Shown here in pieces: positions 37,590-41,834 of a stretch of 64,000 nt of DNA. Location: assembly GCA_047602405.1 (NCBI GenBank), contig JASGHJ010000002.1, forward strand, positions 3,168,001 to 3,232,000. The letters run 5' to 3'. The position numbers were made by a program, and so were the translations under genes. Numbering within the stretch: position 1 is the stretch's first letter; every line of letters starts with the position of its first letter. The notes beneath the pieces are model-generated. The model searched no databases. It had not been told where the DNA came from and worked only from the letters and a program-made list of their open reading frames with translations. The DNA is from Anaeromyxobacteraceae bacterium. Its GTDB lineage: Bacteria > Myxococcota > Myxococcia > Myxococcales > Anaeromyxobacteraceae.

Positions 37590-38795
37590 ATGAAGGCGGT
37601 GGTCTGGAAGGGGCCGGGCAAGGTCTCGGTCGACGACGTGGACGACCCGCGCATCGAGAGCGCGACCGACGTCCTCGTCCGCATCAGCACGGCGGGGATC
37701 TGCGGGAGCGACCTCCACATGTACGAGGGGCGCACCGCGGCGAAGCCCGGCACGGTGATGGGACACGAGAACATGGGCGTCATCGAGGAGGTGGGGCCCG
37801 CGGTGCGCCAGCTCGCGAAGGGCGACCGGGTGGTCCTCCCGTTCAACGTCTCGTGCGGCACCTGCTTCAACTGCTCCCGGGGCTACACGAACGCGTGCCT
37901 GGTCGCGAACGACGAGGCCGCCGGCGCCGCGTACGGCTACGTGGGCATGGGCCCCTACCGCGGCGGGCAGGCCGAGATCCTGCGCGTGCCGTGGGGCGAG
38001 GCGAACTGCATCAAGCTGCCGGGCACCCCGGGCGACGAGCTCGAGGACGACTTCCTGCTCCTCTCCGACATCTTCCCGACCGGCTACCACGCCGCGGTGA
38101 TGGCGAACGTGCAGCCGGGCTCGACCGTCGCGATCTACGGCGCGGGGCCGGTGGGGCTCCTCGCCGCCTACAGCGCCATCCTGCGCGGCGCGGCCGAGGT
38201 CTACGTGGTGGACGCCATCCCCGAGCGGCTCGAGAAGGCGCAGGCGATTGGCGCCATCCCGGTCGACTTCAAGAAGGGGAAGGCCGCTGAGCAGATCCGG
38301 AGCATGCGCCTCAGGAACCCGCTCGTGCGCGGCGCCATGCGCGCCGGCGAGGAGAAGATGGCGGGCGTCATGTGCGGGATCGACGCCGTCGGCTACCAGG
38401 CGAAGGACCCGGAGGATCCGGGCGAGGAGTCGCACACCTCGATCACCGAGGAGCTCGTCGAGCTCGTGAACCCGACGGGCGCCCTGGGCGTCATCGGCGT
38501 CTTCCTGCCCCAGGATCCGGGCGGCAAGGACGCCGCGGCGAAGCGGGGGGCCTACACGCTGCCCTGGGGCATGATCTGGCAGAAGGGGTTGCAGATCGGC
38601 ACCGGCCAGACGCCGGTCCGGCACCACAGCCTCCTGCTCCGCGACCTCATCATCGCCGGGAGGGCGCGCCCGAGCTTCATCGTCTCGCGCCACATCGGCC
38701 TCGCCGACGCGCCCGATGCGTACCGGCGCTTCGACCGGCGGGAGCCCGGCCACACGAAGGTGCTGATCCGGCCGTCCATGCAGGCGGGGGCGTAG
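37590..38795 (+). CDS. Zn-dependent dehydrogenase, glutathione-independent formaldehyde dehydrogenase-like
   Basis: ICGSDLH, GHE, CGTCFNC..C, LSDIFPTG, GAGPVG; strong RBS. Confidence 0.9.
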   Translation: MKAVVWKGPGKVSVDDVDDPRIESATDVLVRISTAGICGSDLHMYEGRTAAKPGTVMGHENMGVIEEVGPAVRQLAKGDRVVLPFNVSCGTCFNCSRGYTNACLVANDEAAGAAYGYVGMGPYRGGQAEILRVPWGEANCIKLPGTPGDELEDDFLLLSDIFPTGYHAAVMANVQPGSTVAIYGAGPVGLLAAYSAILRGAAEVYVVDAIPERLEKAQAIGAIPVDFKKGKAAEQIRSMRLRNPLVRGAMRAGEEKMAGVMCGIDAVGYQAKDPEDPGEESHTSITEELVELVNPTGALGVIGVFLPQDPGGKDAAAKRGAYTLPWGMIWQKGLQIGTGQTPVRHHSLLLRDLIIAGRARPSFIVSRHIGLADAPDAYRRFDRREPGHTKVLIRPSMQAGA

Positions 38796-38849
38796 CCCCT
38801 CGTCTCCGGCGCCGCTGCGCGGCGCCTACGCTGCTTCGAAATGCCGGGG

Positions 38850-40113
38850 TTAGGAGGTGACCGCCTCGGGTGTCTGTGAGGTGACGGTCACGCTATAGCC
38901 GAGGCGCTCAAGGCGGCGAACGAGGTTCTTGGCGACGCGCTTTTCGTCGACCCGGTCGAGGTAGGTGTCCCCGAGGTCCTCGTACGGCACGTGTTTCGTG
39001 AGGATTCTCATAGGCGGCGTTGAGGATCTTGTGGGCGATGGCGAAGGTGGCTCGCTTGTGTCCTCGGCGGGCCTTGAGGCGGAAGTACTTGTCTCGCAGG
39101 TAGGTCTTCTTGGTGCGGATGGCTGCGCCGGCAGCCTCGACCAGGGTCGACCGGAGGTGAACGTTCCCCTTCCGCGAACGCCCGGAGCGCCGCTTCCCGG
39201 CCGATTCGTCGTTCCCGGGGCAGACGCCAGCCCAACTCGCCAGGTGGCGCGGGCCGCCGAAGACGGACATGTCGGGGCCGATCTCAGCGAGAAGTGACGC
39301 GCTGGTCTGGACCTTCACGCCCGGGATCGTCGAAAGCAGCTTGACCTGCTCGCGATAGGGCTCGAGTCGGCGCTCGATCTCCCTCTCTAGCGTGTCGACG
39401 TCGCGGTCAGCAGCGTCGAGCCGGTCGAGCTGTAGCCGCAACATGTACCGGTGGTGGTCGCGGAGCCGGCCGTCGAGGGCGGCCTCGAGCTCGGGGATCT
39501 TCTTACGTAGGAGCCCTTCGGCGAGCTTCGCGAGGTTGCGCGGGTCGGATTCGCCATCGGCCATCGCTCGCAGCATCGCCATGCCAGACTTGCCAGACTT
39601 GCCAAAGACATCCGAGGCAACGCTTGCGAGCTTCACGTTCGCGGTCTCGAGGACCTTCTGTAGTCGATTGCGCTCGGACGTCCGGGCCTGGACGACCGAG
39701 CGTCGGTACCGAACGAGGTCCCGTAGGTCGCGAAGGTAGAGCGGCGGCACGTAGCTCTTGCGGATCAGCCCCATCCTCACGAGTCGGGCGATCCACTCCG
39801 AGTCCTTCACGTCCGTCTTGCGGCCTGGGACGTTCTTCATGTGCTGCGCGTTGCCAACGACGAGCTCGAGCTCGCCCGCCGACTCCAGCACCGCGTAAAC
39901 GGGCTTCCAGTAGACGCCCGTGCTCTCCATGGCCACGTGCGTGACGTGCTCCTCGCGCAGCCACTCCACGAGCGCCAGCAAGTCGCGCGTGAACGTCGAG
40001 AACTCCCTCACGCACTTGCGCAGCCTGGAGCCCTCTCCCAGCAGCACGCAGGCCGTCACTTGCTCCTTGTGAACGTCGAGTCCACAGACCCGATCGACAA
40101 CGATTCCTTCCAT
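38850..40113 (-). CDS. IS110 family transposase (DEDD recombinase), frameshift ~39005
   Basis: CGLDVHK, MESTGVYWKP, KTDVKDSEW, TIPGV, SWAGVCPGNDESAGK; corrected C-terminus YEILTKHVPYEDLG...VRRLERLGY..VTS*. Confidence 0.93.
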
Positions 40114-40119
40114 GACCAC

Positions 40120-40395
40120 CTCCGGGGAAGGAGGCGGTCGCTGCGCCGCGGGGTAGCTTCTAGGACACTGCTTCACGCCCTTCCCAGGCATGCATCTGCC
40201 CAGGTACGGCACACCGTGGTACCCATTCGCAGCGCGGGCCGGTCTCGGGGACGGGGTTCCTGGCAGGACCGCCGAACGTAGCAACGGCCTTCTGAGCGAC
40301 CACCTCCGAGGTCGATCGCTACACCGGGACCGCCCGCGCGCTCAACCAACGGCAGGCATTTCATGCCCCCCGGTGGACGTGTCCGTCCATGAGGT
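40120..40395 (-). ncRNA. Putative IS110 bridge RNA
   Basis: About 280-nt non-coding end with stem/internal-loop structures whose loop strands match the target (CTACG, CCCCGAG) and donor (GAAGCAG) junctions; RNA ends unknown. Confidence 0.6.
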
Positions 40396-41820
40396 CTCGG
40401 GGCGAACGGGCCTCGTCGAACGCCTTCGCGAGCCGCGCGACGCCCTCCGCGATCCGGCCGGCCGGCACGAGCCCGAACCCGAGCGCCAGGCCGGGCGGGC
40501 CGGCGCGCAGCCGGTAGCGGGCGAGCGGCTCCACGCGGACCCCGCGCGCGAGCGCCCGGCGGGCGATCGCGCGGGCGTCGGCGCGCCGGTCGCGCACGAG
40601 CACGCCCACGTGGAGCCCGGCGGCCGAGGGCAGGACCTCGACCCGGTCGCCGAGCTCCCGCGCGAGGGCCTCGAGGAGCCGGGCGCGCCGTGCGGCGTAG
40701 GTGCGGAGCACGCGACGGACGTGGCGCGCGAGGTGCCCGTCGGCGACGAGCTCGGCGAGGGCGCGCTGCACGTCGGTCGGGCCGTGCGCGTCGGCGAGCG
40801 CGCGCGCCGCCCGGAGCGCCGGCTGGAGCGGCGCGGGTGCGACGAGGTACCCGACCCGGAGCGACGGGAGCAGCACCTTCGAGAGCGTGCCCACGTACAG
40901 CACCCGCCCGGCGCGATCGAGCCCTGCAGCGTGTCGAGCGGCCGGCCCTCGAAGCGGAACTCGCTGTCGTAGTCGTCCTCGAGGATCGCCGCGCGCTCGC
41001 GCGCCGCCCAGGCGAGGAGCGCGAGCCGGCGCCCGAGCGACATGGGGACGCCGAGCGGGAACTGGTGCGAGGGGGTGACGTGCACGAGGCGCGCGCCCCG
41101 CGGGAGCGCCTCCACGACGAGCCCCTCCCGGTCGACCTTCACCGGCACCACGCGCGCGCCCATGGCGCGGAAGGCCTCGCGCGCCGGCGGGAAACCCGGC
41201 TCCTCGACCGCGACCACGTCGCCGGGCCGCACGAGCACGCGCCCGGCGAGGTCGAACGCCTGCTGCGCGCCCGCGGTCACGAGCACGTCGTCCGCGCCCG
41301 CCCGCACGCCGCGCGCCCGCCCGAGGTGCGCCGCGAGGGCCTCGCGGAGCGCGGGCTCGCCCTCCGGCGCGGCGTAGCCCCCGCGCGCCCCGCGGCCGCG
41401 GAGCCGCCGCGCGACGAGCCCCCGCCACAGGTCCCAGGGGAAGAGCGCCGGGTCCGGCGAGCCGGTCTGGAAGTCGTAGGGCGCCGCCGCCTCCGGCGGG
41501 CGGAGCACGAGCGCGCGCGCCCAGGGCCCGCGCGGCGCGAGCGGCGACGCCCGCGGCGCCCGGCGCGTCCCCGCCGCCTCGACGCCGGCCGCGACCACCG
41601 TCCCGCCGCCGGCGCGCCCCTCGAGGAAGCCCTCCGCGACGAGCGCCTCGTAGGCGGAGAGGAGCGTGTTGCGGGACACCCCGAGGCGCGCCGCGAGCGC
41701 GCGGGTCGAGGGCAGCCGCTCCCCGGCGCGCAGGCGTCCGTCGAGGATGGCCTCGCGGAGCCCGTCGTAGGCGTCGCGGGCGAGCCGGCCGGGCCCGCGG
41801 AGGGCGAGGTGGAGCTCCAT
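40361..41820 (-). CDS. MocR/GabR family PLP-dependent transcriptional regulator, frameshift ~40920
   Basis: GERLPSTRALA..LGVSRNT wHTH; VTPSHQFPLG, EDDYDSEF, YVGTLSKVL. As read, the stop lies inside the IS end. Confidence 0.9.
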
Positions 41821-41834
41821 GGCCGCGACGGTAA

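Follow-up and report, generated by a model that had tools for sequence, protein, structure and literature searches.

Evidence from homologs for a proposed donor end folded back on itself and read by the left donor guide in a clade of IS110 elements

Among the closest systems described for comparison with the element reported here are IS621 and ISCro4 (IS622), which, in the text of PMC11208160 and PMC11208158 and in PDB entries 8wt6 and 9t56, combine DEDD RuvC-like and Tnp domains with a catalytic serine, carry in their long upstream end an RNA that has one internal loop for the target and one for the donor, and use a CT core, handshake dinucleotides, short subterminal repeats and a REP target. 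The present element shares these, its RNA being predicted and its handshake dinucleotides putative. In the accessible text of the sources, a model of two-strand exchange (PMC11208160; PMC13626964), single-stranded excision of IS621 (10.64898/2026.08.31.748434), and copy-out and integration of the top strand of CazIS110-1 (10.1101/2025.10.25.684509) are described. Opinion in the field is divided on the strandedness of IS110 donors, single or double, and on the exchange of one strand or both (10.1101/2025.10.25.684509; 10.64898/2026.08.31.748434; PMC13626964). The donor guides of ISPpu10 were described in the main text as pairing with opposite strands (10.64898/2026.03.19.712850).

The element was located in the window, the whole stretch of 64,000 nucleotides analysed from an Anaeromyxobacteraceae bacterium (GenBank assembly GCA_047602405.1, contig JASGHJ010000002.1, positions 3,168,001 to 3,232,000), and all coordinates below are window positions. 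It extends from 38833 to 40397, contains the region treated in a preliminary description of this DNA, and is a member of the IS110 family: a 2-nt core, insertion in a specific target and the lack of long terminal repeats were found in all four copies in the genome (6.16 Mb, 74% GC), together with a transposase having PF01548 and PF02371 domains, DEDD motifs and a catalytic serine. The copies differ from one another by 2-5 substitutions, and a 9-nt duplication (39584-39603) is confined to the window copy. Sequence common to the three further copies stops at the same cores, which fixes the ends independently at the CT of the left junction (38831-38832, plus strand; AG on the transposase strand) and the CT of the right junction (40396-40397, plus strand), the limit of the sequence shared by the copies. 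The empty target GCCTACG-CT-CGGGGCG and the circle junction TGAGGT-CT-GCTTCG reconstructed in the preliminary description were confirmed, and every string quoted in it was recovered where it had been placed. No circle junction (right end, core, left end) was present in this genome assembly; the contig of one homolog (L101) closes with a right end joined through the core to a left end, as either a circle or a tandem copy would give.

The transposase ORF (38908-40113, minus strand) encodes 401 aa and matched PF01548, PF02371 and NF033542, with an ESAG serine beside the DEDD motifs; the D, E, D, D and S residues were nearly invariant in 37 homologs. The best structural match of a model of a full-length homolog was IS621/ISCro4 (PDB 8wt6, 9t56; TM 0.78 by target length, 21% identity). 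A clade-conserved C-terminal tail of about 50 aa (38850-39005, minus strand) is open but out of frame in 4/4 copies, having been lost through a +1 frameshift at about 39002-39009. The tail was kept in 37 of 39 full-length ORFs among the homologs listed, was a confident helix (pLDDT >90) in the homolog structure model, and matched no family in Pfam; this clade-specific helix may act as a clamp on the proposed folded donor. The protein cluster of the transposase consisted of the four products of this genome alone. At the frameshift site one copy differs in a base, though the copies differ at only 2-5 places, and this divergent base together with a frameshifted MocR-like neighbour hints at an assembly error. 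A general base-calling error at GATC was not supported as the cause, since the motif is not depleted and its local context recurs intact at other places in the genome. The frameshift near the transposase 3' end in all four copies puts the activity of this copy in question. The neighbouring MocR-like regulator gene (40361-41821, minus strand) is frameshifted near 40930-40945 and had its original stop inside the REP; the insertion lengthens it by about 10 codons into the element's left end, and the predicted bridge RNA could thereby be reached by transcription from the host gene.

The insertion lies in a REP-like repeat, the left half of which (38796-38830, plus strand) contains a CCCCTCG signature, a variable GC hairpin and the left target CTACG, and the right half of which (40398-40409, plus strand) reads CGGGGCGAACGG. 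The resemblance among insertion sites on which the preliminary description had staked its reading was found, all four copies being inserted at the same base of this repeat, one of them differing from the right target by a single base. Genome-wide, 62 occurrences of the empty 12-nt target were counted against 2.4 expected, 58 of them in the REP-like repeat; this repeat numbers about 228 copies, its ends being fixed and its hairpin variable in sequence. Because 182 of the 225 sites that differ from the 12-nt target at one position at most already lie in REPs, the four insertions are uninformative on gating by the REP hairpin; RNA-guided REP targeting as such is already known. A zinc alcohol/formaldehyde dehydrogenase-like gene (37590-38795, plus strand) stops directly before the REP.

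Homologous loci were taken from genomes (80 of 92 found), metagenomes (80 of 190), the phylum (12) and plasmids (8 of 405 records); their identity was 36-66%. A close transposase was found in none of 60 related genomes and in 7 of 400 genomes of the phylum, so that the covariation described below rests on these 36-66% identical homologs. The 170 loci with a gene start yielded 125 that were fully parsed, representing 76 distinct elements, in 65 of which the target guide sufficed to place the core. Of the 53 loci in a second set, 27 could be parsed, some of them wrongly, and 18 distinct guides were obtained; this set was not blind, since 45 of the 53 had failed the first parsing and had been inspected beforehand. 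The protein tree held 54 of 56 rows, with nine truncated or misparsed rows left out; related homologs are not independent, and two sister pairs may stem from one event. Members of the clade were seen in Actinomycetota, Bacillota, Pseudomonadota and the phylum of this genome. TTT(C/T) stood at the position of the right-end repeat in 10 of 61 homolog left flanks (L032, L036, L041, L058, L061, L115, L118, L127, L147 and L161), against a background of about 0.2% per position; these targets resemble donor ends, and L058 and L061 are apparently tandem elements. One Solirubrobacterales genome held at least 19 near-identical copies (L007-L025), many inside the apparent end of another mobile element and several as inverted pairs.

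The non-coding ends of the element comprise 282 nt upstream of the transposase and about 17 nt on the other side, and an RNA with two internal loops, as in IS621-type elements, was predicted in the long end, extending from about 40307 to 40130. The RNAalifold consensus of 14 close relatives has two internal loops with strands of about 10 nt (10x10-nt); 9 of its 21 pairs showed changes on both sides, a count reached by 0 of 500 shuffles, a figure which relatedness inflates. The fold of the single sequence was unremarkable, with z = -1.98 over the full end and z = +0.49 when the target loop was folded by itself. A search of Rfam returned no match, and a scan of 40050-40500 for sigma-70 promoters and terminators found none. 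The target-binding loop (40237-40289, minus strand) contains a left target guide at 40275-40284, a right target guide at 40244-40250 and a putative handshake AC at 40242-40243; the CTACG and CCCCGAG first reported in this loop are present in it, and the internal loop recurs in the 14-relative consensus. The donor-binding internal loop (40163-40224, minus strand, consensus fold) contains the right donor guide GAAGCAG (40168-40174) with a putative handshake UG at 40166-40167 (together 40166-40175, minus strand) and, on its other strand, the left donor guide strand TACCACGGTG (40212-40221, minus strand). GAAGCAG had been placed on a terminal stem-loop as the reverse complement of core and donor end; its position and that match were retained, and the terminal stem-loop, which appears only in the single-sequence MFE, was rejected, because the consensus of 14 RNAs puts GAAGCAG on the 3' strand of the second internal loop. 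An anti-SD stretch at 40130-40139, the 3' strand of the basal stem, lies next to the ribosome-binding site at 40114-40123 (40114-40139, minus strand, in all) and can pair either with that site or with its 5' partner at 40298-40307, a possible translation switch; a strict script recorded this alternative in 7 of the 14 close elements and in 2 of the 42 distant ones.

Chance agreement of the guides was estimated with 10,000 dinucleotide shuffles of the end, the first 40 nt excluded. CTACG was obtained in 16% of shuffles, CCCCGAG in 11%, GAAGCAG in 1.5% and all three in 0.03%, and CCCCGAG with the next two donor bases in 0.5%. Singly the guide matches are weak, unlike the joint match and the evidence from homologs. 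After the right target guide comes AC, the two bases that open the left end (0.5% of shuffles), as in the handshake pattern described in the text for IS621 (PMC11208158), and the right donor guide runs on into UG, which fits the target with one pair and one wobble. In multi-copy homolog sets the target-loop handshake equals the first 2 nt of the left end; its permutation test was circular, the same bases having helped to place the core. The donor-loop handshake is weak, with p=0.01 overall and no significance within the close clade. Covariation, which the preliminary description had put forward as a check, was obtained for the right donor guide against the right end (4.52 cognate versus 2.32 non-cognate of 5; n=22, p=5e-5; rows were dropped where the first TTTC had no core after it) and, within the close clade, for the left target guide against the flanking sequence (n=5, p=0.009); in the larger sub-clade the left target guide gave no significant result (n=38, p=0.14). 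Right target guides track the flanks in the multi-copy sets, and target guides on both target strands, as in IS621, were found in this element and its close clade. The elements of the multi-copy sets are bounded by AG as read on the transposase strand; the left flank, AG and the first two element bases are copied in the 3' strand of loop 1, and the right end and AG in that of loop 2, which places the CT core on the strand opposite the transposase. Two homologs (L108, L115) have AA in place of AG as core, with the matching change in both guides. A bridge-type RNA with three conventional guides is predicted with high confidence. The readable target and donor guides of the preliminary description are upheld by the four sites, the two-loop consensus and the covariation; its IS621-like reading has to be amended, since the guide order is reversed and the fourth guide follows an internal arm.

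For that fourth guide the canonical site, which takes in the core and the adjoining bottom strand, was rejected, the lack of a significant match to it being clade-wide. In the window copy the RNA matches only the last 2 nt, the handshake, of the 7-nt left donor adjoining the core (40389-40395, plus strand), whereas the 5-nt right donor (38833-38837, plus strand) would be read by the right donor guide. The preliminary statement that the other donor arm had no good match is thus correct for the canonical site (best 6/9 anywhere in the end, inside a stem) and incomplete as to the RNA, because the guide given by loop position, 40212-40221, tracks a different stretch. This stretch is the fold-back arm CACCGGGGGG (40366-40375, minus strand), of the same sense as the guide and separated from the terminus by a DNA hairpin with a 6-bp stem and a 4-nt loop (40374-40389). 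Beyond it lies the subterminal inverted repeat of the long end, GAAATGCC (40355-40362, minus strand), 33 nt from the core; its partner at the short end, GGCATTTC on the transposase strand (38838-38845, minus strand), is 5 nt from the core.

The same layout recurs in the clade, where the left end starts with the core and continues with 6-8 nt, a Watson-Crick hairpin whose sequence varies, another 11-14 nt and GAAA, and the right end consists of TTTC, 5 nt and the core. In 52 of the 65 distinct elements the spacing between GAAA and the 3' side of the hairpin exceeds that between the core and its 5' side by 4-7 nt, compared with 6.3% of shuffles. The distance from core to GAAA ranges from about 32 to 98 nt, and both spacings are maintained in correctly parsed rows; one homolog (L126) has a 50-nt branched insertion in the hairpin loop with both spacings intact. 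The bases that flank TTTC covary with those beside GAAA in the manner of an inverted repeat (n=20, p=5e-5). The left donor guide and the arm beyond the hairpin have the same sense, and over 29 distinct guides the score against the own arm was 6.34 versus 5.25 against other arms (p=5e-5), with significance in each clade (close, n=10, p=0.0002; other, n=19, p=0.001). Among 20 sister pairs on the protein tree, 11 were better, 2 worse and 7 tied (p=0.011; ungapped 10:3, p=0.046), while the canonical-site control gave 7 better, 4 worse and 5 ties. The second set gave 6.03 versus 5.41 for the arm (n=18 distinct guides, p=0.0008) and 4.64 versus 4.85 for the canonical left donor site (p=0.88; range p=0.80-0.88).

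An offset scan of the guide against the DNA peaked 3-4 nt before GAAA in the same sense, and in 48 of 52 cases guide position 10 stands opposite positions -3 to -1 (core = -2,-1). Guide positions 2-8 match the arm in 21-29 of 32 guides, and position 9, which in IS621 pairs with the core, does so in 5 of 32. The match is weak in this copy (6.5/10), and 7 of 29 guides score 5 or less. Transitions between guide and arm were wobble-compatible rather than incompatible at 21:11, 13 of the 21 falling at one position, and wobble in the inner stem (2 G-T versus 1 A-C) is uninformative, the stems having been chosen as Watson-Crick. The folded antisense junction of this element has the proposed shape (MFE -13.7 kcal/mol), a shape found by antisense MFE in only some of 7 examples. 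Pairing of the left donor guide with the internal arm, whatever its form, is considered likely.

The reading preferred here, to which a probability of about 0.55 was assigned from sequence comparison, is that the donor is a hairpin-folded single strand and that one strand is transferred. The strand opposite the transposase (window plus strand) would be copied out as a single-stranded circle. At its junction the inverted repeats would form an outer stem, followed by a bubble of 7 nt of left donor, CT and 5 nt of right donor and by the inner hairpin. The predicted two-loop bridge RNA would read the target on both strands and its own donor on one folded strand: the right donor guide would pair with CT and the right donor, and the left donor guide with the returning arm, a stand-in for the missing bottom strand that would occupy, opposite the core, the place which the bottom strand has in IS621. 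Both donor guides would thus pair with the same strand, the window plus strand. The top strand alone would be cut and swapped into the target with the help of the handshake pairs, and host replication would complete the inserted copy. Exchange of the bottom strand seems excluded, because position 9 rarely matches the arm (5/32) and insertions keep the whole hairpin; it would cut the hairpin off, and the arm has no core to exchange. This proposal agrees with the top-strand copy-out reported for CazIS110-1 and the single-stranded excision reported for IS621 (10.64898/2026.08.31.748434) and departs from the two-strand model, and the roughly 20-fold preference of CazIS110-1 for double-stranded donors at one junction, given in the accessible text, counts against it (10.1101/2025.10.25.684509).

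Folded single strands serve as recombination sites in integron attC sites and in the ends of IS200/IS605 elements. These are recognised by tyrosine recombinases or HUH transposases and involve no guide RNA. More tentatively, and at somewhat less than even odds, a large IS110 clade may have turned bridge recombination into an obligate single-strand process, with an attC-like self-folded donor whose arm is read by a programmable guide.

The same pairing of guide and arm could also occur on a double-stranded circle from which both strands extrude hairpins as a cruciform, the displaced sense strand holding the bubble open. The transposase-sense strand is more stably folded than the antisense strand in 38 of 51 junctions, pairs between left donor and arm on the sense strand were G-T rather than A-C at 102:18, a target stem-loop is described as aiding ISPpu10 integration (10.64898/2026.03.19.712850), and the preference of CazIS110-1 just cited points the same way. 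The G-T excess may merely reflect T-rich donors opposite G-rich arms, about 55 bp of GC-rich duplex would have to open, and covarying inverted repeats are explained more simply as the closing stem of one folded strand; a cruciform is considered unlikely.

Also improbable is a donor recognised by half, in which the right donor guide and handshake suffice, the left guide is vestigial, the hairpin and repeats are bound by protein, for example by the C-terminal tail, and the likeness of guide and arm is the relic of an old duplication. The loose guide/arm match in several elements, this copy included, would suit such a relic, as would the left target guide, which likewise lacks covariation in the larger sub-clade, the conservation of the tail in nearly all full-length ORFs listed, and half-match recombination as described in the text for IS621 (10.64898/2026.08.31.748434). 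A relic would be expected to decay, whereas the register opposite the core is kept and guide and arm change together between sisters (11:2) and in distant phyla.

A role of hairpin and arm as 5' leader, insulator or promoter spacing, unrelated to donor recognition, would agree with the better fold of the sense strand, with TGAAA, which may resemble a -10 element, and with the upstream host gene reading into the element end on the sense strand. It leaves unexplained the fixed core spacing, the GAAA/TTTC pairing with the far end and the covariation with a same-sense unpaired loop strand, and is regarded as quite improbable. Least probable of all is an ordinary IS621-type system with four guides and two duplexes whose left donor guide has drifted in this copy, which would account for the same domains, catalytic residues, two-loop RNA and handshake logic and for the slight excess seen at the canonical site when all elements are taken together (p=0.053 gapped, 0.012 ungapped), but the lack of the canonical match is clade-wide, cognate pairs scoring no better than non-cognate ones inside each of the two clades (p=0.13-0.40) and among the loci of the second set (p=0.80-0.88).

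A clade whose guide reads a fold-back arm would make the question of donor strandedness testable by a few compensatory mutations, and arm reading could explain why some IS110 elements seem to be without a donor guide. A recent survey, according to its text, used donor windows of 25 nt per side, which would mostly miss the arm (10.64898/2026.10.21.760802). If the folded single-strand donor is correct, it would provide design rules for bridge editors accepting single-stranded donors and an RNA-programmable inserter of single-stranded cargo, and reprogramming of the donor would likely need the hairpin end rather than a 14-bp site. A hairpin-folded donor was not found in the open-access text of the IS110 and bridge-RNA literature searched (including 10.64898/2026.03.19.712850, 10.64898/2026.10.21.760802, 10.1101/2025.05.14.653916, 10.64898/2026.08.14.744561, PMC13604230 and PMC12045711); the clade might be recorded in Fig. 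S12 of 10.64898/2026.10.21.760802 or in the supplementary tables of PMC11208160.

Compared with the IS1111 seekRNA elements as described in the text of PMC11187229, the element has the same order of target matches, with the top-strand complement 5' of the bottom-strand match. The IS1111 RNAs lie mostly downstream of the gene, with repeats of 11-13 bp placed 7 and 3 bp from the ends (PMC11187229), whereas here the RNA is upstream and an 8-bp repeat lies at 5 and 33 nt, a very asymmetric layout unlike that of IS1111 ends. CazIS110-1 would share the copy-out and integration of the top strand proposed here, and differs in that its accessible text makes no mention of a hairpin or stem (10.1101/2025.10.25.684509). 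ISPpu10 is likewise inserted in a REP beside a stem-loop on the left-target side and has a U-G wobble in its left target guide; there, according to the text, the hairpin lies in the target as an efficiency gate, whereas here a hairpin is present in the donor end too (10.64898/2026.03.19.712850). The protein exceeds those of IS621 and ISCro4 by about 80 aa and, in the homolog model, has additional helices around residues 159-207 as well as one at the C terminus; the inverted repeats lie 5 and about 33 nt from the core. The core is on the strand opposite the transposase, whose own strand reads AG there, so that the guides come in the reverse of the IS621 order. By its sequence the element is thus an IS110 member that resembles a bridge recombinase and departs from IS621-type systems in one defining feature, its left donor guide tracking an internal arm of the same strand behind a hairpin.
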